38,127 bases of DNA from NCBI GenBank assembly GCA_046593875.1, contig JBKJQQ010000004.1, forward strand, positions 1-38,127. The letters are read 5' to 3'. A model generated the notes under the pieces. The model did not search any database and was not told the DNA's origin. It saw nothing but the letters and a program-made list of their open reading frames with translations. The translations under genes were made by a program, and so were the position numbers. This DNA is from Mycobacteriales bacterium. Its GTDB lineage: Bacteria > Actinomycetota > Actinomycetes > Mycobacteriales > SCTD01. Below are positions 9,864-18,525 of the stretch, piece by piece. The number at the start of each line of letters is the position of its first letter. The stretch's first letter is position 1.

Positions 9864-10260
9864 CGTTGCTGAGCAGGAGCTCGCGCGGTCGGAGCAGATT
9901 CCACGGGAGGCGTCAGATATCCGCGCCGTCCCTCTCGTCGTTCTCGGAAGGCGCTGGGGCGGTGAGAAGCACTCCGGTGCGCGACCGTCAGCGCGCTCCG
10001 TAGGTCGTGTCGCCCGGCCGCTTGTTCTCCTGGACGACCTTCATGCGCAGCTCCGCGCATCCCCCTGCTAGTTGTAGTCGTCGGAGCGCCACCCAGAGTC
10101 GCGTTGTCGCGGTGCGCCCAGGCCGCCGAGAAGCAGCCCGCGTACGCGCACGGCGTCCGAGGCAGACGTGTCCGCGATTCACGGATGCTTGACCCGGGCG
10201 GGCGTCAGGAAGACTCTGCGCAGGACGGCATACGGGGGTGTGCCACGGACTGGGGGGCCC

Positions 10261-10950
10261 ATGACGAGTACGGATCGCGCGCGAAGCTACGTCGTCGCCG
10301 GGGCAGCGTTGTTGTCGCCCTTGCTGCTCGCGGCGGCCTTCTTGGTGTCACCTGCCGATCCTCCCGGGCCGCCTGAAGAGCTCATGGCCTTCATCGCCGA
10401 GCAGCCCGACCGCTGGTACGCCGGACAGCTGCTGCTCGCCCTCGGCTTCGTGCTGCTGGGGGCTGTCGCACTCGCGACCGCGATGCTGGTGCGGGCCCGG
10501 GGAGGCGCACTCGCGACGGCTGGAGCCCTGCTGCTGCTCATCGGCGGGACGGCGTTCGGGGCCGCGATGTTCATGTACGGCGGCACGGCGTACCTCAACG
10601 CGACGAACGCGACGTTGACGGATGGGGCCGGTGTCGCCTTTCAGGCGGCGGCCGAGGACTCCGGTGCTCTCGGCGCGCCGTTCCCGATCGGGTTCTTCGG
10701 CATCATCATCGGTGTGGTGCTGTGTGCGCTCGCGCTGTGGCGGTCGGGTGCCGTCGCCTGGTGGCAGGCACTTCTGCTGGGACTGCTGCCGGCGGCCATC
10801 TTCGGAGGCTTTGAGGCCCCCTACGGGGTGGGCGCCGCTTTGTGCGTCGGCGTCTTGGTCGGCGTGGTCGCCGTGGCGCGGGCGCTTGTCCGCCAGCCGG
10901 ACGGGGGCACGGTGGCTTCTGCCGCCGACCGGGCGGCGGTCTACGCCTGA
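10261..10950 (+). CDS. Hypothetical polytopic membrane protein
   Basis: High GC3 and about 6 hydrophobic segments. ATG 10261 is preceded by a GGGGGG SD. No catalytic motif recognised. Confidence 0.6.
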   Translation: MTSTDRARSYVVAGAALLSPLLLAAAFLVSPADPPGPPEELMAFIAEQPDRWYAGQLLLALGFVLLGAVALATAMLVRARGGALATAGALLLLIGGTAFGAAMFMYGGTAYLNATNATLTDGAGVAFQAAAEDSGALGAPFPIGFFGIIIGVVLCALALWRSGAVAWWQALLLGLLPAAIFGGFEAPYGVGAALCVGVLVGVVAVARALVRQPDGGTVASAADRAAVYA

Positions 10951-11226
10951 CCGACCCAGCGCGCACGCTGCCGACCCGCACGCCGATGGACCATCAGACG
11001 CTTGGAAGGGACGCCTCGTCTGCGCGCCGTGCGCCGTCGGCTCATGCTGGCTAGGAGGTGCTTGCACCCGCCCCGGTGTAGGCGCGGAGCGGCCGACCGG
11101 GAGTCGGCAGACGTCCGCTCTATGCCGCATAGCGGGTCCATCCCTCGCGCCGCTCTCCAGCGCGGGGGTCGACGAGTTAGGCGAGGCCTGGTGAGGTCTC
11201 GCCAGGAGCCCAGATGGCATCATGCG

Positions 11227-11258
11227 TCCCCTGCTCTGACCGGCTGAGCTACCGGCCC
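11227..11258 (-). pseudogene. Truncated tRNA gene: 5' half only (acceptor 5' strand, D-arm, 5' anticodon stem)
   Basis: The minus strand reads GGGCCGG-TA-GCTC-AGCCGGTCA-GAGC-A-GGGGA, a canonical tRNA 5' half. It continues CGCATGA-TGCCA, a degenerate anticodon arm with CAT at the anticodon position. No T-arm (GGTTCGA-type) or 3' acceptor strand follows. Confidence 0.5.
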
Positions 11259-11259
11259 G

Positions 11260-11294
11260 TGCGATGCGTCATCGCAGTCCAGACGGGCCTGGAC
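11260..11294 (-). terminator. Two adjacent GC hairpins downstream of the M56 peptidase gene
   Basis: TGCGATG-cgt-CATCGCA at 11260-11276 and GTCCAG-acgggc-CTGGAC at 11277-11294. No U-tract follows either. Confidence 0.3.
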
Positions 11295-11379
11295 TCTCTC
11301 GCCGGGTGCTGGAGCCGCCGAGCCCCTGACCCCTTCGGCGCGGCCCGGGCGGAGGCACGCCCGTCGGAGGATCGCTGGG

Positions 11380-12327
11380 CTACCGCGCCTGGCTGCTGGT
11401 GTAGCTCTGGCGGGCCTGCTCGAACTGGACCTCGGTGTGCCGGGCCAGCCCCAGAGCGCTGGCCGCGGTCAGGATCGTGAGGCCCACGACGGCCGCGCGC
11501 AGCGCCAGGTGCCGTCGTGGGGCAGGCGCGAGCAGGGCCCGCACCCGGTCACCTGCGCTACCGCGGACCGCTCCGAGGACGACGGACTGCAGCGGCCCCG
11601 CCGCGAAGTCGGGTGCAGGCGCGCTGGCAAGGCTGGCGCGCGCCAGAGCCTGCGCCGCGGTGCGACGGCTCCCGACCTGCCGGGCGGCGTCTTCGTCGGC
11701 CCAGCGCTCGACCGCAGCGACGACGGCCGTGGTCAGCGGACCGAGCAGGGGGTTCGCCGCGACGGCGAGCTCAGTGAGCTGGACGTAGAGATGGTGCCGG
11801 TGTCGCAGATGGGAGTGCTCGTGGGCGAGCAGGACACGCTGCTCGGCAGGGGGCAGGGCCGCGAGCATCGCCGTGGACACGACGATGCGCCCGCGCCAGC
11901 CGGGCAGGGTGAAGGCGTCGGGGCGCTCGTCGTCCACGATGATCAGACCGGCGTCCCCCGGGCCCAAGGCGCGGCACGTGAGCTGCGAGGCAGTGAGGTC
12001 GCGCCCCGCGGCGACCAGGCGCAGTACCGCAGCACCCAGGAGGACAGCCACGACAGCAGCGACGGGCCAGCCGACGACGGGGGGCAGCGGCACGGTGCTG
12101 TGCACCTGCTCGGCCGACCACTGGCCTCGGGCCGCCAGGACCGGCAGCTGCGCCAGCGCGTCGAAGGCCAGGACCGCCAGGACGAACCCGCAGCTGACCG
12201 CCGTGACCAGGCCGGCACCGGTCAGCAGCCGTGCGGTCGCCCGCGGCGGCAGCCGCGAGCCCAGCCGGCACGCGGTCCCGCGGAGCAGCAGGGCGGCGAT
12301 CAGCGGGACAGCAGCCAGCGGGTCCAT
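11380..12327 (-). CDS. M56-family (BlaR1/MecR1-like) membrane metalloprotease sensor
   Basis: Zinc motif HEHSHLRHRHH (HExxH) after N-terminal TM segments. The start lies 1 nt after the stop of the BlaI-family gene. Confidence 0.8.
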   Translation of the reverse strand: MDPLAAVPLIAALLLRGTACRLGSRLPPRATARLLTGAGLVTAVSCGFVLAVLAFDALAQLPVLAARGQWSAEQVHSTVPLPPVVGWPVAAVVAVLLGAAVLRLVAAGRDLTASQLTCRALGPGDAGLIIVDDERPDAFTLPGWRGRIVVSTAMLAALPPAEQRVLLAHEHSHLRHRHHLYVQLTELAVAANPLLGPLTTAVVAAVERWADEDAARQVGSRRTAAQALARASLASAPAPDFAAGPLQSVVLGAVRGSAGDRVRALLAPAPRRHLALRAAVVGLTILTAASALGLARHTEVQFEQARQSYTSSQAR

Positions 12328-12328
12328 C

Positions 12329-12727
12329 TCAGTCGACGGGCTGACCGGCGGGACCCGGCTCGGTCGGGCGCAGGAGGTCAGCGAGCAGCTGCTCGTCCCC
12401 GGGTCCGAGGTCGGCGACGAAGTGCGCCAGCGCGGAGGCCCGGTCCGGACCGGCCGCCAGCAGCTGGCTCATCCGCCGGCCGGTGAGGGCCGCGGCGACG
12501 TCCTTCTCGGCGGTGACCAGGCTGTAGGCGTAGGACCGGCCGGCCGACTCCCGGCGCAGCGCGCCCTTCCCGACGAGCCGGCTCAGCGTGGTCATGACCG
12601 TGGTGTAGGCCAGGCCGTCGCCGAGCTCGGCCTGCGTCTGTCCCGGCGTCAGCGGGCGGCCGGCAGCGGCCAGGACAGCGAGCACCCGGCGCTCCAGCTC
12701 CCCCCGGCCCCGACGCGGTGCCCCCAT
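12329..12727 (-). CDS. blaI: BlaI/MecI/CopY-family transcriptional repressor
   Basis: About 130-aa winged-helix protein: GELERRVLAVLAAAGRPLTPGQTQAELGDGLAYTTVMTTLSRLVGKGALRR. Paired with the M56 sensor immediately downstream. Confidence 0.8.
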   Translation of the reverse strand: MGAPRRGRGELERRVLAVLAAAGRPLTPGQTQAELGDGLAYTTVMTTLSRLVGKGALRRESAGRSYAYSLVTAEKDVAAALTGRRMSQLLAAGPDRASALAHFVADLGPGDEQLLADLLRPTEPGPAGQPVD

Positions 12728-12738
12728 GATCCTCCGAT

Positions 12739-12776
12739 CTACTACTGACTCAGTGGTACTGTCCGGACGGTAGTAG
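12739..12776. promoter_or_regulatory. Candidate BlaI operator region in a divergent promoter
   Basis: Inverted heptamers CTACTAC at 12739-45 and GTAGTAG at 12770-76. They enclose the palindromes ACTGA-C-TCAGT and GTCCGGAC. This is a locally AT-richer patch between blaI and the ABC operon. Confidence 0.4.
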
Positions 12777-12822
12777 TCAAGACTGCCACACCACCCGGCG
12801 GCAGCAGCGACGAGGAGACCAC

Positions 12823-13785
12823 GTGACCGAGATCGCCGTGGACGCGCGCGGACTCGTCAAGCGGTACGGCCAGCTGACGGCGGTGGACGGCGTGGACCTG
12901 AGGGTCGGGGTGGGCGAGGTCTACGGGCTATTGGGACCCAACGGCGCGGGCAAGACCACGTTCCTGCGGATGCTGTTCGGGCTGATCCGGCCCGATGAGG
13001 GGACGCTGGAGGTCCTCGGCCGCACCTGGGCGAGCGACGGGCCACGAGCGCTGGAAGGCGTGGCCGGCTTCCTGGAGAGCCCGAAGTTCTACCCCTACCT
13101 GTCCGGCCGCACGAACCTCGAGCTGCTCGCCCAGCTCGACGGTGGCGGCGCCGTCGGCCGGGTCGACGAGGTCCTCGCGACCGTGGACCTGGCCCGCCGC
13201 GACCGGGACAAGGTCAAGGGCTACAGCTTCGGCATGCGCCAGCGCCTGGGGGTCGCCGCCGCACTGCTGCGCGACCCGCTGCTGCTCGTGCTCGACGAAC
13301 CGGCCAACGGCCTGGACCCGGCGGGCATCCGGGACATGCGCGCACTGGTCAAGCGGCTCGCCGCACGCGGCCTGACGGTCCTGCTCAGCTCGCACAACAT
13401 GGACGAGGTCGAAGACATCTGCGACCACGTCACGATCATGAAGTCCGGGTCGGTGGCCTACCACGGCACGATCGCCGCGCTCCGCGAACGGGCGCCGGAA
13501 CCGGCACACCTGCTGCGCAGCAGCGACGACGGCGCAGCGCTGGCCCGGGCCGCCGACCACCCCGACCTGGCTGTCGCCGCCTCCCCCGACGGGCCCGGCC
13601 TCGCCGTCCGCGGATCCCAGGCGGCGCTGGACCACTACGTCCGCGACCTCGTCGGCGCCGACCTGGCGATCCGGGCCCTGAGCCTGTCCGAGGCGCCGCT
13701 CGAGTCGCTGTTCTTCCTGCTCACCGAGTCCGCACCGGACACCAGCGCCGAGCTCCGGAGCACCGCTGCTGGAGCAGGCCGGTGA
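12823..13785 (+). CDS. ABC transporter ATP-binding protein
   Basis: Walker A GPNGAGKTT. Signature-like YSFGMRQRL. Walker B LLVLDEP. H-loop SSHNM. Confidence 0.9.
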   Translation: MTEIAVDARGLVKRYGQLTAVDGVDLRVGVGEVYGLLGPNGAGKTTFLRMLFGLIRPDEGTLEVLGRTWASDGPRALEGVAGFLESPKFYPYLSGRTNLELLAQLDGGGAVGRVDEVLATVDLARRDRDKVKGYSFGMRQRLGVAAALLRDPLLLVLDEPANGLDPAGIRDMRALVKRLAARGLTVLLSSHNMDEVEDICDHVTIMKSGSVAYHGTIAALRERAPEPAHLLRSSDDGAALARAADHPDLAVAASPDGPGLAVRGSQAALDHYVRDLVGADLAIRALSLSEAPLESLFFLLTESAPDTSAELRSTAAGAGR

Positions 13786-14657
13786 CCGCCCTCCGGACCG
13801 AGCCCAGCCGCCCGGCACAGGCCCGCCCTTCGGGCAGCCGGCGACCGGGCCTGCTCACCGCCTACCGCTTCGAGCTGACCAAGCTCGCCGCCCAGGCCCG
13901 CGCCCGCTACGCCCTGCTCGGCTGCCTGCTCGCCCCGGTGCTGGTCGTCCTGGTCCTCGACGGTCAGGGCCGTCCACCCAAGGACACCCTGTTCGGCCGG
14001 CACATCCACGCGAGCGGCTACGCCGTGCCGCTGCTGCTGCTCGGCTTCGCCGCCCAGTGGGTGCTGCCCCTGCTGACCAGCCTGGTCGCCGGCGACATCT
14101 TCGCCAGCGAGGACTCCCACGGCACGTGGAAGACCATCCTGACCCGGTCGGTCAGCCGCGGCCGGATCTTCGCCGCCAAGACCCTGGTCTGCGCCACGTA
14201 CGCCGTGCTCGTGCTCGTCGTCCTGGCCACCAGCACGACCGTGGCCAGTACGACGCTCGTCGGCACGCAGGACCTCATCGGCCTGTCCGGGCAGCTGATC
14301 CCCGGCGCCGACGCCGCTCGCCTCGTGGTGCAGGCGTGGGCGACGGCCCTGCCACCGCTGCTGGCCTTCACCAGCCTGGCGATCCTGCTGTCCGTGCTCA
14401 GCCGCAACCCCGCCGTCGGCGTCGTCGCGCCGATCGTGATCGGCTTCGTCCTGCAGCTCGTCGGGTCCCTCGGCGGCCTCGACCTGCCGCGCCGGCTCCT
14501 GCTCACCACCCCGTTCGAGGCCTGGCACGGCCTGCTCGTCGCCCAGCCGTTCACGGCGCCGTTGTGGCAGGGGTTGGCCGTGTCGACCGCCTGGTGCGGG
14601 GTCTGCCTGGCCGTGGCCCACATGGTCCTGCGTCGTCGCGACATCACGGGAGGATGA
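13782..14657 (+). CDS. ABC-2 type transporter permease
   Basis: The GTG start overlaps the ATPase stop (GTGA). About six hydrophobic segments. Confidence 0.75.
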   Translation: MTALRTEPSRPAQARPSGSRRPGLLTAYRFELTKLAAQARARYALLGCLLAPVLVVLVLDGQGRPPKDTLFGRHIHASGYAVPLLLLGFAAQWVLPLLTSLVAGDIFASEDSHGTWKTILTRSVSRGRIFAAKTLVCATYAVLVLVVLATSTTVASTTLVGTQDLIGLSGQLIPGADAARLVVQAWATALPPLLAFTSLAILLSVLSRNPAVGVVAPIVIGFVLQLVGSLGGLDLPRRLLLTTPFEAWHGLLVAQPFTAPLWQGLAVSTAWCGVCLAVAHMVLRRRDITGG

Positions 14658-15139
14658 GCATGACCCCCACCCACCGCAGGCGCCTGCTGTCCACTGCCGC
14701 CCTGGCCGGCGCGGTGTCCGTGGGCCTGACGGGCTGCAGCAGCAGCATCACTCGCCCCCGGGTCGAGGCCGCCCTGCTGCCCGCCTTCACCGAGCTCTAC
14801 CTCCAGCAGGCCGCCATCCTCGGGCACACCGAGGTCACCCGAGCATCGATGGCGGCGACCGACGACTGCGACAAGGGCGGACCCACGCTGCCCGACGTCG
14901 GCGTCGGCGCCGACTGGATCTGCATGATCCACTGGACCGATGACCAGGGGATGAAGCAGGACGGGAAGTTCGAGCTGCAGATCCGCAGCAACTCCTGCTA
15001 CACCGCCACCGGTCCGTCCCGCATCACCGGCACCGTCATGATCACTGACATCCACGGCGTCGACGTGCCCAACCCCGTCTTCGAGTTCGACGGCTGCTTC
15101 GATCCCGACGCGGCCGTCCCGGCCGGACCGACGACGTGA
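14654..15139 (+). CDS. Lipoprotein, function unknown, Cys-rich
   Basis: The ATG overlaps the permease stop (ATGA). Signal peptide plus lipobox RRRLLSTAALAGAVSVGLTGC. Four further Cys. High GC3. It lies in the tail of track ORF 14057..15139. Confidence 0.7.
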   Translation: MSMTPTHRRRLLSTAALAGAVSVGLTGCSSSITRPRVEAALLPAFTELYLQQAAILGHTEVTRASMAATDDCDKGGPTLPDVGVGADWICMIHWTDDQGMKQDGKFELQIRSNSCYTATGPSRITGTVMITDIHGVDVPNPVFEFDGCFDPDAAVPAGPTT

Positions 15140-15182
15140 GCGACTCGGGTCAGGACCTCCTGCTCCGCGCCAGGTCTCGGAC

Positions 15183-16598
15183 GTGAGCGCCCTGCTGGAC
15201 GGGTTGCTCGGACTGGCCAGTCCCTGGGGCTACCTGCTGGTCGCCCTGCTGGCCGGCCTGGAGGCTGCGGCGTTCGTCGGCCTGGTCATCCCCGGGGAGG
15301 CCGCGATGCTGCTCGGCGGGGTCCTTGCCTCCACCGGCCGGGCCAGCCTGCCGGTGATGATGGCCTGCGCCGCCGTGGGCGCCGTCCTCGGCGACTCTGC
15401 CGGGTACGAGATGGGCCGCCGGTTCAGCGAGCCGCTGCGCGCCAGCCGGCTCGGCCGGCGGATCGGGGTGCAGCGATGGGACGACGCTGAGCAGTACGTC
15501 CGCCGGCGCGGTGGCCGGGCGGTGTTCCTGGGCCGGTTCGTCGGCGTGCTGCGCGCCCTGGTGCCCTTCGTCGCCGGCGCGAGCCGGATGCCCTACCGGA
15601 GGTTTCTGCCCTACAACGCCCTCGGCGCGGTCATCTGGGCGCCCGGCCTGGTCTACCTCGGCTTCCTGGCCGGACACTCCTACCGACGCGTCGAGCAGCT
15701 CGCCGGACGCGCCAGTCTGCTGCTGGCCGTCGCCGTCGTGGTGCTCGGCGTCGTCGCCGTGGTCGGGCGCTGGATCAGCCGGCACCCCGAGCGCGCCCTG
15801 GCACCGTTGCGGCGCCTGGCCGCCCGTCCTGTCGTGCTGCGGATCCGTGGCCGCTACGCCCGACAGCTGGCCTTCCTGGCCGCCCGGCTCAGCCCGGCGG
15901 GCGCCCTCGGGCTGGCACTGACGACACAGCTGGCTCTCCTGGCCCTGCTGGGCGCGGTCTTCGGCGCCGTCACCGAGGACGTCCTGGCCGGCAACGAGAT
16001 CGTCCGCATCGACAGCCCGGTCTCCCGCTTCCTGATCGACCACCGCGAGCCGTGGCTGACCTCCGCCATGCGCCTGATCACCGCGCTCGGCGGCATCCAC
16101 GTCCTCGTCCCGCTGCTGCTGGCCGTCGGACTGCTGGCCCGGTGGCGGCAGAGCAGCTGGCGACCGCTGGTGCTGCTCGCCCTGACCACCACAGGTGCGG
16201 TGGTGGCCAGCGCCAGCATCAAGCTGCTCATCGCCCGGCCTCGTCCTACCGCCGACTCACTGGTCGGCGCGCTCGGGTACGGCTTTCCGTCCGGACACAG
16301 CACCCAGGCCGCCGCGGCCTGGCTCGCGGTCGCTCTGGTCCTGGGTTCGATGACACGCAGCACGGCGGCGCGCGTCACCCTCGGCTCCGCCGCCCTGTCC
16401 GTCGTCGTGCTGGTCGGGGTCTCCCGCATCTACCTCGGCGTGCACGAACCGACCGACGTCCTGGGCGGCTGGGCCCTTGGCGCCCTGTGGCTGTGCGCCG
16501 TACTCACCGCTCTGCACCTGCTGCAGCACCGCGCCGACCTCCGCCACGCGGGCGCGGCCCCCGCCCCGGGCGCCCGTTCCGTGCGGGTGCGGGGTTGA
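15183..16598 (+). CDS. Bifunctional DedA-family / PAP2-family phosphatase membrane protein
   Basis: The N-terminal half has the DedA signature (GRFVGVLRALVPFVAGASRMPYRRFLPYNALGAVIWAP). The C-terminal half has all three PAP2 motifs: KLLIARPRP, PSGHS, SRIYLGVHEPTDV. Confidence 0.85.
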   Translation: MSALLDGLLGLASPWGYLLVALLAGLEAAAFVGLVIPGEAAMLLGGVLASTGRASLPVMMACAAVGAVLGDSAGYEMGRRFSEPLRASRLGRRIGVQRWDDAEQYVRRRGGRAVFLGRFVGVLRALVPFVAGASRMPYRRFLPYNALGAVIWAPGLVYLGFLAGHSYRRVEQLAGRASLLLAVAVVVLGVVAVVGRWISRHPERALAPLRRLAARPVVLRIRGRYARQLAFLAARLSPAGALGLALTTQLALLALLGAVFGAVTEDVLAGNEIVRIDSPVSRFLIDHREPWLTSAMRLITALGGIHVLVPLLLAVGLLARWRQSSWRPLVLLALTTTGAVVASASIKLLIARPRPTADSLVGALGYGFPSGHSTQAAAAWLAVALVLGSMTRSTAARVTLGSAALSVVVLVGVSRIYLGVHEPTDVLGGWALGALWLCAVLTALHLLQHRADLRHAGAAPAPGARSVRVRG

Positions 16599-16824
16599 CG
16601 GGCGGCCCTGTTCGGTGCGCTGCCGGCGGGCGACCGCCCCGCTGGAGCACGTGGCGAGACGAGCTCTGTCGCCTGGGCGGGCCGCGGCGCTCCACGCCTT
16701 CGTCCCACTCGGCGTCGATCGCCCGCAACTGCTCCGCCGCTTCGCAGCCGCCCGGCGGCGTACGCTCCCCCGGCCGCCGACCCACCGCCGACCGGGCGGC
16801 GCAGGCCGCAGGGGGGAGCGGAGG

Positions 16825-18525
16825 ATGGACGCCGAGGCCCGGCTGCCCGCGCAGTCGCCCAGCGCCCAGATGCGGGCGCGTCCCGCGACCGGAACCAGCA
16901 CCGTCGACGAGCTGAACCTGCTGCGCTCGGCCGTCGAAGGCGGGCTGGACGGCATGGTCGTCGTCTCCGCCGACGGCGTCATGATCACCAACAACCTGCG
17001 CTTCCAGGAGATCTGGCCGATCCCACCCGAGGTCGTGACCAGCGGCTCGGACGAGGCGGCGCTGCACTCCGTGCTCGACAAGCTGGTCGAGCCCGACGCC
17101 TTCCTCACACGCGTCCACGAGCTCTACCAGCAGGCGTCCGGCTCCTCACGCGACGAGCTGCTGCTCCGCGACGGACGCGTGCTCGACCGCTACGGCACCG
17201 CACTGCACGACGACGGCGGCGCCTACATCGGCTGGGCCTGGTTCTTCCGCGACGTCACCTCCGAGCGCGCTGCGGCCATCGACGCGGGCCGCCTTGGAGC
17301 GCTGGTCGCGGTGGCGCAGGAGCTCGGCGAGGCACGCGACGAGGACGACGTACTGGCCGTGGTGGCCGGGCTGGGGGCGAGCGTGCTGGGGGCGCAGGGT
17401 GTCGCCCTCTGCCTCCGCACCGAGACGCCCCACCTGCTCCGCACGGTGGCGACGGCCTTCTTCGACGAGGGCGTACGGAACGCGGTCGCCGAGATCCCCG
17501 ACGACGCGGACCTCCCGATCGCCCGCACGGCCCGCACGGGCGAGGCGCTGTTCTACCTGGACCGGGACGACGCCGTTGCCGAGTTCCCAGGGAGTGCAGC
17601 GCTGTACGAGCAGGCGCGGACGCGCGCGTCTGCCGTCGTCCCGTTGAGCGCGCAGACGGGCACCTTCGGGGCGCTCGCCGTCGCGTTCGAGCAGCCCAAC
17701 GCCTGGCGTCCCGCTGACCGAAACCTCCTGCAGGCGCTGAGTGCCCTGACCGCGCAGACCCTCCAGCGACTGTCGGCGCGCCGGGCCGAGCAGGTGGCCC
17801 ACGCCGCCGTGCGCCGGCTGTCCGAGACGCTCCAGCGCAGTCTGCTCACCGCGCCCCCGCACACCGACGCGTACGAGCTCGCGGTGCGCTACCAGCCGGC
17901 GGCGCAGGAGGCCCAGGTCGGCGGCGACTGGTACGACGCCTTCTCCATCGGCGGAGACCGCATGACGCTGGTCGTCGGCGACGTCGCCGGCCACGACCGC
18001 AACGCCGCCGCCGCGATGGCCCAGGTGCGCAACGTCCTGCGCGGGGTGGCGCAGACGCTGGGCGAGCCGCCCGGCGCCGTGCTCCGCGCGCTCGACCTCG
18101 CCCTCGACCGGCTGGAGGTGGCCGCCCTCGCCACCGCCGTGCTCTGCCAGGTCGAGCCGGCAGCCGACGGCGCCCTGCTCCTGCGCTGGTCGAACGCCGG
18201 CCACCCGCCCCCGCTCCTGGTGCACCCGGACGGAAGCGCCGAGCTCCTCTCGACCGATCCCGAGATGCTGCTGGGCATCTCGCCGGGTGACGACCGGTCC
18301 GACCACACCTCCGTCCTGCCGCCGGGGGCCACGCTGGTGCTCTACACCGACGGCATCGTCGAGCGGCGGGACCACGCACTGGACGTCGGGCTCGAGCGGC
18401 TGCGCCAGACCGCTGCGGAGCTGCACCGCCTGAGCCCGGACGACCTGTGCGACGGCTTGCTCGAGCTGCTCGCGGCGGGCGCCGAGGACGACGTGGCCCT
18501 GCTCGTGCTGCGGGTCCGCGCGTGA
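16825..18525 (+). CDS. PAS-GAF-PP2C (SpoIIE/RsbU-type) serine phosphatase
   Basis: PAS-like N-terminus (LLRSAVEGGLDGMVVVSADGVMITNN). A central GAF-like region. PP2C/SpoIIE motifs GGDWYDAF and VVGDVAGHD, ending ...DDVALLVLR. ATG 16825 has a GGAGCGGAGG SD. Confidence 0.8.
   Translation: MDAEARLPAQSPSAQMRARPATGTSTVDELNLLRSAVEGGLDGMVVVSADGVMITNNLRFQEIWPIPPEVVTSGSDEAALHSVLDKLVEPDAFLTRVHELYQQASGSSRDELLLRDGRVLDRYGTALHDDGGAYIGWAWFFRDVTSERAAAIDAGRLGALVAVAQELGEARDEDDVLAVVAGLGASVLGAQGVALCLRTETPHLLRTVATAFFDEGVRNAVAEIPDDADLPIARTARTGEALFYLDRDDAVAEFPGSAALYEQARTRASAVVPLSAQTGTFGALAVAFEQPNAWRPADRNLLQALSALTAQTLQRLSARRAEQVAHAAVRRLSETLQRSLLTAPPHTDAYELAVRYQPAAQEAQVGGDWYDAFSIGGDRMTLVVGDVAGHDRNAAAAMAQVRNVLRGVAQTLGEPPGAVLRALDLALDRLEVAALATAVLCQVEPAADGALLLRWSNAGHPPPLLVHPDGSAELLSTDPEMLLGISPGDDRSDHTSVLPPGATLVLYTDGIVERRDHALDVGLERLRQTAAELHRLSPDDLCDGLLELLAAGAEDDVALLVLRVRA

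Follow-up and report, generated by a model that had tools for sequence, protein, structure and literature searches.

Here we describe a six-gene locus at positions 11380 to 16598 of a 38,127-nucleotide stretch of DNA from a Mycobacteriales bacterium (GenBank assembly GCA_046593875.1, contig JBKJQQ010000004.1, positions 1 to 38,127, forward strand), the whole of which is referred to as the window. A gene pair encoding a BlaI-type repressor and a membrane zinc protease is divergent there from an operon for an ATP-binding cassette (ABC) exporter and a lipoprotein, behind which lies a single gene that joins a DedA domain to a PAP2 phosphatase. The features of the locus, with their lengths in amino acids (aa) and the basis of each assignment, are as follows:

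11380-12327, minus strand: membrane zinc protease of the M48/M56 superfamily, sensor-less, 315 aa (Pfam, motifs, hydropathy)
12329-12727, minus strand: blaI, winged-helix repressor of the BlaI/MecI family, 132 aa (Pfam Penicillinase_R)
12740-12758, no strand: predicted operator O1, TACTAC-TGACTCA-GTGGTA, a 19-bp dyad (motif scan and orthologue alignment)
12757-12775, no strand: predicted operator O2, TACTGT-CCGGACG-GTAGTA, a 19-bp dyad (motif scan and orthologue alignment)
12823-13785, plus strand: ABC ATPase of the DrrA / lantibiotic-protection type, 320 aa (Pfam ABC_tran)
13782-14657, plus strand: ABC-2 permease with about six hydrophobic segments, 291 aa (Pfam ABC2_membrane_4, hydropathy)
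14654-15139, plus strand: lipoprotein of an unannotated family, 161 aa (lipobox LTG-C)
15183-16598, plus strand: DedA-PAP2 fusion, 471 aa (Pfam VTT and PAP2)

An original prediction, made from the sequence of the window, had proposed that this region is a self-contained module for lipid-carrier recycling or bacitracin-type defense, and its account of the six open reading frames (ORFs) and their spacing proves exact. A single nucleotide separates the blaI stop codon (12329-12331) from the protease start codon (12325-12327), as read from the sequence; the ATPase and permease genes overlap by GTGA (13782-13785) and the permease and lipoprotein genes by ATGA (14654-14657); the lipoprotein stop (15139) is followed after 43 nucleotides by the fusion start (15183); and the divergent intergenic region between blaI and the ABC operon spans 95 bp (12728-12822). 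The motifs that it named are likewise present, HEHSH at residues 169-173 of the protease, and KxxxxxxRP, PSGH and SRxxxxxHxxxD at residues 347-355, 369-372 and 414-425 of the fusion. The GC content of third codon positions (GC3) is 89-95% across all six ORFs, and on this measure the fusion does not stand out as recently imported. Scans of positions 11200-17000 for sigma-70 promoters and intrinsic terminators returned no site, a result that is uninformative in an actinobacterium of 72% GC. Downstream of the protease gene, at 10168-10950, lies an ORF for a predicted membrane protein of 260 aa which belongs to no Pfam family.

The repressor is a clear member of its family, scoring 67.9 bits against Pfam Penicillinase_R (PF03965; gathering cutoff 22.6), and its nearest solved homologue is the Mycobacterium tuberculosis BlaI protein Rv1846c (PDB 2G9W, E 4.5e-8). 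Its match to CopY_TcrY (TIGR02698) reaches 24.6 bits where the equivalog cutoff is 121.95, and because there is no cysteine anywhere in its 132 residues, it lacks the CopY metal site. The partner protease scores 37.1 bits against Pfam Peptidase_M48, above the cutoff of 20.3, and 22.3 bits against Peptidase_M56, under the cutoff of 31. Its HEHSH (residues 169-173) and ERWAD (207-211) motifs are invariant in 32 homologues, and a profile built from these homologues matches the M48/HtpX structures 3C37 and 3CQB in the PDB; BlaR1 is not among the PDB matches of this profile, and a single-sequence phmmer search of the PDB with the protease returned no match. Hydropathy places hydrophobic segments at residues 4-22, 40-58, 89-107 and 274-292, after which only a 23-residue C-terminal tail remains. 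As the protein ends 23 residues past its last membrane segment, it has no penicillin-binding domain, and a Pfam scan gave no match to the transpeptidase domain PF00905. The protease orthologues are always paired with blaI in the loci examined. Thus, while the original prediction of a BlaR1-type M56 sensor was correct in that an HEXXH/ExxAD protease is encoded one nucleotide from blaI, it has to be given up as regards the M56 assignment and the sensor domain; the protein is one of the sensor-less "BlaR-like" proteases and, strictly taken, no BlaR1-type sensor.

The original prediction had also drawn attention to inverted heptamers between the two operons. Both are present, CTACTAC at 12739-12745 and GTAGTAG at 12770-12776, and they turn out to be the outer edges of two adjacent dyads, that is, two tandem 19-bp copies of the consensus TACTAC-N7-GTRGTA. 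O1 begins 13 nucleotides upstream of the blaI ATG, and O2 overlaps it by 2 nucleotides. O1 is the sole exact match to the consensus in the 38-kb window, where shuffled sequences lead one to expect none, and no site there other than O1 and O2 comes within two mismatches of TACTAC-N6-8-GTAGTA. When the regions upstream of blaI in orthologous loci are aligned (loci are designated here by L numbers), the dyads are the part that is conserved: O1 is retained in L013, L095, L097, L098 and L104, and the second dyad is present also in L095 and L097. In 1.05 Mb of retrieved DNA, blaI loci are the only places at which the strict pattern TACNAC-N5-9-GTNGTA is present. These observations support the view that the regulator pair, divergent from the ABC-permease-lipoprotein operon, shares its predicted operators with that operon. 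As a separate observation, the operator half-sites vary by lineage (TACTAC/GTAGTA, TCTAC/GTAGA, TTCTAT/ATAGAA and CTTAC/GTAAG), with drifted forms at L109:4170-4200, L114:4170-4200, L110:4370-4470 and L116:4140-4180; despite this drift the dyad architecture is retained, often in two or three copies per promoter.

How far this arrangement extends became apparent when homologues of the protease, lipoprotein and fusion were followed across public assemblies. Locus L095 carries the same five genes in the same arrangement, with identities of 85% for BlaI, 67% for the protease, 84% for the ATPase and 86% for both the permease and the lipoprotein. L104, from Frankia sp. R82, also has the five genes (BlaI 67%, ATPase 71%, permease 60% and lipoprotein 53% identical), and on the short contig of L097 the junction of the divergent blaI and ABC genes is visible (BlaI 92%, ATPase 88%). 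The permease is 86-91% identical in L095 and L106; in L104 and L108 the figure is 57-60%. The blaI-protease pair and the ABC-permease-lipoprotein operon divergent from it are therefore a conserved five-gene module that reaches as far as Frankia.

Within this module the ABC-permease-lipoprotein trio is a cassette of its own. The ATPase scores 89 bits against Pfam ABC_tran and the permease 53.9 bits against ABC2_membrane_4 (PF12730), both above the Pfam cutoffs, and the best NCBIfam matches of the ATPase are TIGR03740 at 205.5 bits (cutoff 309.75) and DrrA at 194 bits (cutoff 312); the permease gives 24.4 bits against the MutG permease model, whose cutoff is 117. The lipoprotein combines its lipobox with four conserved cysteines (C72, C90, C115 and C148) and matches no Pfam or NCBIfam family. 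Its 179 homologues (clustered sequences) are every one annotated as hypothetical, and its gene comes after the same ATPase and permease genes in 5 of the 5 loci checked. An AlphaFold2 (AF2) model of the protein, with a predicted local distance difference test (pLDDT) score of 83, found no credible match in a fold search of the PDB (best E 0.067), and comparison with LanI-type immunity lipoproteins (SpaI, NisI) revealed likeness of neither sequence nor fold; a lipobox is all that they have in common. As such, the analysis defines an unannotated family of disulfide-rich lipoproteins that accompanies one type of ABC-2 exporter. An alignment of homologues gives CDKGGPKVAD-GPGADWIC and DVPNPVFEFDGCFDP as the conserved motifs of the family, some members of which are about 100 residues longer (256-280 aa).

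In loci L108 and L119 the trio faces an OmpR-type two-component system in place of BlaI and the protease, and since it stands with BlaI in some loci and with a two-component system in others, we regard it as a cassette with an exchangeable regulator. It is probably an exporter of, or shield against, a membrane- or cell-wall-active compound. In L095, an OmpR-type response regulator and a histidine kinase (L095:7936-9926) follow the protease gene with a 4-nucleotide overlap, such that the BlaI/protease pair and a two-component system are in one operon beside the same ABC cassette.

The fusion consists of a DedA/VTT half (residues ~1-200), an arginine-rich cytoplasmic linker (200-240) and a six-helix PAP2 domain (241-457), and scores 79 bits against Pfam VTT/DedA (cutoff 33.9) and 69 bits against PAP2, again above the cutoff. 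In the DedA half, E39, D71, R118 and R124 are invariant in 28 sequences; we infer that R118 and R124 match R130 and R136 of YghB (from PMC9881974). The PAP2 motifs, K347-x6-R354-P355, P369-S-G-H372 and S414-R-x5-H421-x3-D425, are kept in 25-28 of 28 homologues. Against the more specific families the scores are low: the DedA half gives 67.4 bits with the UptA equivalog NF052604 (cutoff 250) and 56.8 with NF052605 (cutoff 300), and the PAP2 half falls far under the cutoffs of the NCBIfam models SepP, PRK11837 and PgpB. The AF2 model (pLDDT 77) shows six PAP2 helices joined by an amphipathic linker to the DedA half, and a Foldseek search relates the PAP2 half to Bacillus subtilis PgpB (5JKI; E 7e-7, template-modeling score 0.79, 32% identity) and also to LpxE (6EBU).

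The expectation of the original prediction that the PAP2 active site faces outward agrees with the distribution of charge over the 28 homologues. The mean number of lysine and arginine residues is 10 in the linker (200-240), 1.6 in loop 324-331, 2.1 in loop 390-399 and 4.3 in the C-terminal tail, and the loop at 264-304 is acidic; this bias, conserved in the 28 homologues, puts the linker, loops 324-331 and 390-399 and the C-terminal tail inside. By the positive-inside rule, the three PAP2 catalytic motifs are thus predicted to face outward, which is the orientation required for dephosphorylating released carrier. The protein belongs to the PGAP/NCBI family "bifunctional DedA family/phosphatase PAP2 family protein", members of which (P0034, P0047, P0071, P0084 and P0113) are 53-61% identical to it, align over 91-98% of its length and all carry PF09335 and PF01569. 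Such fusions have been published (Roney and Rudner, 10.1101/2022.02.03.479048; PMC9881974), and beside these and the UptA (DedA) flippases of undecaprenyl phosphate, the domain order and conserved residues are alike, with no structural difference from the published fusions. Our literature search found no paper linking BlaI-type regulators with PAP2, UppP, DedA or this ABC-lipoprotein cassette. The statement in the original prediction that such a fusion under a proteolytic BlaR1-type sensor is an arrangement not known to be described therefore holds for the regulatory setting, but not for the fusion, which is both published and named by PGAP; the one new thing about it here is where it lies, as the last gene of an operon opposite a BlaI-type regulator.

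Related regulator pairs elsewhere are repeatedly found beside carrier-recycling genes. In L013, a homologue of the fusion (63% identical) lies in an operon behind a further PAP2 gene, divergent from a blaI-protease pair (BlaI 57% and protease 42% identical to those of the window) with the same dyad between the two operons. In L101, a PAP2 gene follows 103 bp after the protease gene, with TACTAC-N8-GTAGTA directly in front of it, and in L098, from Actinopolymorpha, a stand-alone DedA gene adjoins the regulator pair. A tblastn search of plasmids with the protease gave 10 matches, of which the 8 annotated ones were read (L109-L116), large Streptomyces plasmids among them. A blaI-M48 pair is divergent from PAP2 and UppP genes in L109, and blaI-M56 or blaI-M48 pairs from a PAP2 gene in L111 and L114. 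In L110, blaI, an M56 gene and a major facilitator superfamily (MFS) gene are divergent from an operon for two glycosyltransferases, a polysaccharide deacetylase and UppP. L112 has an ABC transporter, a permease and a two-component system, then blaI-M56, then DedA and two PAP2 genes, with two TCTAC-N6-GTAGA dyads before the DedA gene that resemble the dyad before blaI. L113, on a plasmid of Streptomyces sp. CdTB01, holds LspA, FtsW and UppP genes together with an unannotated DedA-PAP2-like frame. This frame (L113:680-1749), matched in three pieces 2.5 kb from the blaI-M48 pair, is absent from the gene table of the plasmid and may be a pseudogene. No PAP2, UppP or DedA gene is near the pair in L115 and L116.

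Taken together, a PAP2, UppP or DedA gene occurs within 5 kb in 8 of the 12 loci sampled from the regulator side (or in 7 of 11, with L109 and L114, which are near-identical, counted as one), and in a control of 100 kb, drawn at arbitrary places from two of these plasmids, 0 of 75 annotated genes encode one of these proteins. This supports, at the level of gene neighborhoods, a link between the BlaI/protease pair and polyprenyl pyrophosphate phosphatase or DedA genes that recurs widely in Actinobacteria. PAP2 and UppP are non-homologous proteins with the same activity, and their occurrence as alternative cargo suggests that the function in common is polyprenyl pyrophosphate dephosphorylation; their interchange is the best available argument pointing to polyprenyl pyrophosphate as the relevant substrate. 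In a tree of 15 proteases, recycling-gene cargo falls on both sides of the midpoint root, and the ABC cassette is found only inside one well-supported subclade, which holds the window. This suggests, for what is a small sample, that the link to carrier recycling is the older one, the ABC cassette being a later recruit. Two types of cargo are combined in the window, the ABC-permease-lipoprotein cassette and genes for carrier-lipid recycling (PAP2, UppP, DedA), and each of them is found alone beside related regulator pairs. Apart from this, ChrB_N and DUF1232 genes recur directly beside DedA-PAP2 fusions and near BlaI/protease pairs, at L008-L011 (~4028-5067 in L008), L013:2789-3770, L098:11657-12579 and L108:1571-2002, accompanied in L098 by a chromate transporter.

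From the gene identities, the conservation of the operators, the recurrence of the neighborhoods and the predicted topology, we favor with moderate confidence the interpretation that this is an envelope-stress or defense locus of a soil actinobacterium with high GC content, in which a proteolytic switch controls an exporter, a lipoprotein and a carrier-recycling fusion. As the conservation of the operators suggests, BlaI would bind O1 and O2 in the 95-bp region and repress both its own blaI-protease operon and the opposite one. By analogy with BlaR1/BlaI, an envelope cue would activate the zinc protease, whose catalytic domain would lie in the cytoplasm, and the activated protease would cleave and inactivate BlaI; since a sensor domain is missing from the protease, detection of the cue most likely takes place within the membrane or via a partner. 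Derepression would then induce the ABC exporter and the lipoprotein, whose genes are translationally coupled, and, by read-through, the phosphatase-flippase fusion, whose PAP2 half may dephosphorylate polyprenyl pyrophosphate on the outer face of the membrane and whose DedA (UptA-like) half may return polyprenyl phosphate to the inner face. Carrier-lipid turnover would rise as a result, and the offending compound would be removed or shielded. Carrier recycling is the target of bacitracin and amphomycin-class lipopeptides, and a bacitracin-type function is, by analogy, plausible. A broader proposal, which we put forward tentatively and consider possible at best, is that in actinobacteria the sensor-less BlaI/M48-M56 pair widely serves for feedback control of the polyprenyl-phosphate carrier cycle itself, such that the protease reads the state of the cycle within the membrane and cleaves the repressor, raising phosphatase, flippase and exporter. 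In that case the cue could be a build-up of polyprenyl pyrophosphate, the sequestration of carrier or the adjacent ABC transporter's activity, and were this proposal true, the orphan "BlaR-like" sensors would gain both a class of ligand and a physiological role.

A number of observations weigh against the control of all these genes by one proteolytic switch. The protease stays under the M56 cutoff, with BlaR1 absent from its structural matches; neither ABC protein reaches any NCBIfam cutoff; the neighborhood sample is small and partly non-independent, given the likeness of L109 and L114; and the sequencing runs that hold the locus are of soil and rock metagenome DNA only, with no RNA run among them. 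The remaining points concern the fusion. L095 has no fusion, a convergent DUF2254 gene standing in its place; the fusion has no operator of its own within two mismatches in the window; and for about 11 of the 13 sampled lineages of DedA-PAP2 fusions there is no BlaI nearby, their neighbors being, for example, DUF1232, ChrB_N and MFS genes. (A metagenome scan with an alignment of the fusion gave mostly distant PAP2-only matches and few full-length fusions, and the contig scan from the fusion side gave 7 loci, mostly short.) The order of lipoprotein gene and then fusion is shared with the window by the closest relatives, L106 and L107 (permease 91% and lipoprotein 86% identical), in both of which two 2-nucleotide deletions disrupt the first ~35 codons of the fusion. 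As the N-terminal membrane helix would be out of frame, the gene is a pseudogene unless its translation begins at a later start; this suggests relaxed selection on the fusion in that lineage. These deletions (L106:1790-1960 and L107:990-1160, against 15183-15290 of the window) are identical in two independent soil samples. L100 carries the closest homologue of the fusion (83% identical), and only a C-terminal remnant of the lipoprotein gene lies upstream, suggesting that the ABC-lipoprotein cassette has been lost or rearranged there in the L100 lineage; the remnant (L100:531-632) is frameshifted and covers residues 134-161.

The conserved neighborhood on which the original prediction had staked its claim is accordingly real for the five-gene module, as far as Frankia, but does not extend to the fusion, which L095 lacks and which mostly occurs without BlaI. 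Nor is the locus the fixed, self-contained unit that had been proposed, given L095 and the cassettes of L108 and L119 that stand under a two-component system. The fusion is an optional tail of the five-gene module, present in its closest relatives and absent in one that is similarly distant.

The explanation that draws most on these points is that the BlaI circuit here takes in no more than the ABC-permease-lipoprotein cassette and that DedA-PAP2 is an independently expressed housekeeping neighbor downstream. The ~85% identical module of L095 without a fusion, the lack of an operator within two mismatches, the DUF1232, ChrB_N or MFS surroundings of most fusions elsewhere and the frameshift near the start in L106 and L107 all speak for it, and because the fusion has no operator and is missing from L095, its co-regulation comes down to the 43-bp gap and the shared strand. 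We nevertheless think this explanation somewhat unlikely: the fusion starts 43 bp behind the lipoprotein gene on one and the same strand, with no terminator-like site between, the lipoprotein-fusion arrangement recurs in L106 and L107, and PAP2, UppP or DedA genes stand beside related regulator pairs far more often than chance would allow (8 of 12 loci, with 0 of 75 genes in the control). Judged from the sequence, co-transcription of the fusion with the lipoprotein gene is plausible.

A second explanation holds that the locus is an inducible unit for a surface glycopolymer or for envelope remodeling and not for antibiotic defense, with the ABC-2 transporter exporting a product linked to polyprenyl pyrophosphate and PAP2 and DedA recycling the carrier. 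ABC-2 transporters elsewhere (TagGH, Wzm/Wzt) are generally known to export lipid-linked glycopolymers, the divergent operon of L110 with its two glycosyltransferases, polysaccharide deacetylase and UppP would fit such a role, the DedA gene of L098 adjoins a GT2/TarS-like glycosyltransferase, and UptA genes lie inside glycosylation operons according to Roney and Rudner (10.1101/2022.02.03.479048; PMC9881974). In the window, however, no glycosyltransferase stands beside the module; the permease matches ABC2_membrane_4, and the TagG/Wzm-type family ABC2_membrane is not among its Pfam matches; the best matches of the ATPase are the lantibiotic-protection and DrrA resistance subfamilies; and the cassette swaps its regulators between BlaI and a two-component system, as detoxification modules often do. 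We regard this explanation as distinctly improbable. That the locus is a classical beta-lactam-sensing BlaI/BlaR1 system or is run by a CopY-type copper regulator, as membership of the repressor in the BlaI/MecI/CopY family and its weak CopY_TcrY match might lead one to suppose, is scarcely credible, for it is contradicted by the domain content: the protease has no penicillin-binding or sensor domain and the module no beta-lactamase or penicillin-binding protein, on which ground we reject classical beta-lactam sensing, and the repressor is cysteine-free and far from the CopY equivalog cutoff, on which ground we reject metal sensing of the CopY type.

The envelope-stress and defense locus that we propose is composed of parts that are all of known kinds, and it is their regulatory link to carrier recycling that the comparison of sequences newly supports. 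Similar in cargo are the bacitracin operons, bcrABC of Bacillus licheniformis and bcrR-bcrABD of Enterococcus faecalis, which combine an ABC ATPase, an ABC-2-type permease and an undecaprenyl pyrophosphate phosphatase with a membrane-associated sensor-regulator, the phosphatase being of the PAP2 type (BcrC) or the UppP type (BcrD). Unlike these operons, the present locus has a repressor-protease pair as its regulator and not BcrR or an extracytoplasmic function (ECF) sigma factor, adds a DedA flippase half and a lipoprotein, and reaches no NCBIfam equivalog cutoff. LanFEG transporters with their LanI lipoproteins and the Bce-type ABC/two-component modules share with it an ABC-2 exporter accompanied by a small lipoprotein; the likeness to LanFEG extends to the best family match of the ATPase, which is "lantibiotic protection", and the likeness to Bce to L108 and L119, where an OmpR-type two-component system accompanies the same cassette. 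In contrast to LanI, however, the lipoprotein has no detectable relative in sequence and no fold relative in the PDB, and the subfamily scores stay under their cutoffs; in contrast to BceB, the permease has no large extracellular domain.

In its regulation, the locus resembles BlaI/BlaR1 and MecI/MecR1 of Staphylococcus aureus and B. licheniformis, with which it has in common a winged-helix repressor in an operon with a membrane HEXXH protease, tandem dyads of the TAC...GTA type in a divergent promoter region and, presumably, derepression by proteolysis. It differs from them in having no extracellular penicillin-binding sensor, in a protease that is M48-like by score, and in a cargo of ABC exporter, lipoprotein and recycling enzyme instead of a beta-lactamase or PBP2a. 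Related to it as well are Rv1846c/Rv1845c of M. tuberculosis and CenIR of Clostridioides difficile (PMC13492132), in both of which a BlaR-like protease without a transpeptidase domain is associated with an envelope-related role. [quoted passage not shown] A 2026 survey puts at only ~6% the share of annotated BlaR-like proteases with a transpeptidase-type beta-lactam sensor, and the signals and regulons of the remainder are largely unknown (PMC13492132). The locus and its relatives offer a testable role for one large actinobacterial group of these proteases, namely control of the enzymes that regenerate the lipid carrier and of an ABC-lipoprotein cassette. An inducible carrier-recycling circuit of this kind in soil actinomycetes, large Streptomyces plasmids included, would bear on both intrinsic resistance and the self-protection of antibiotic producers.

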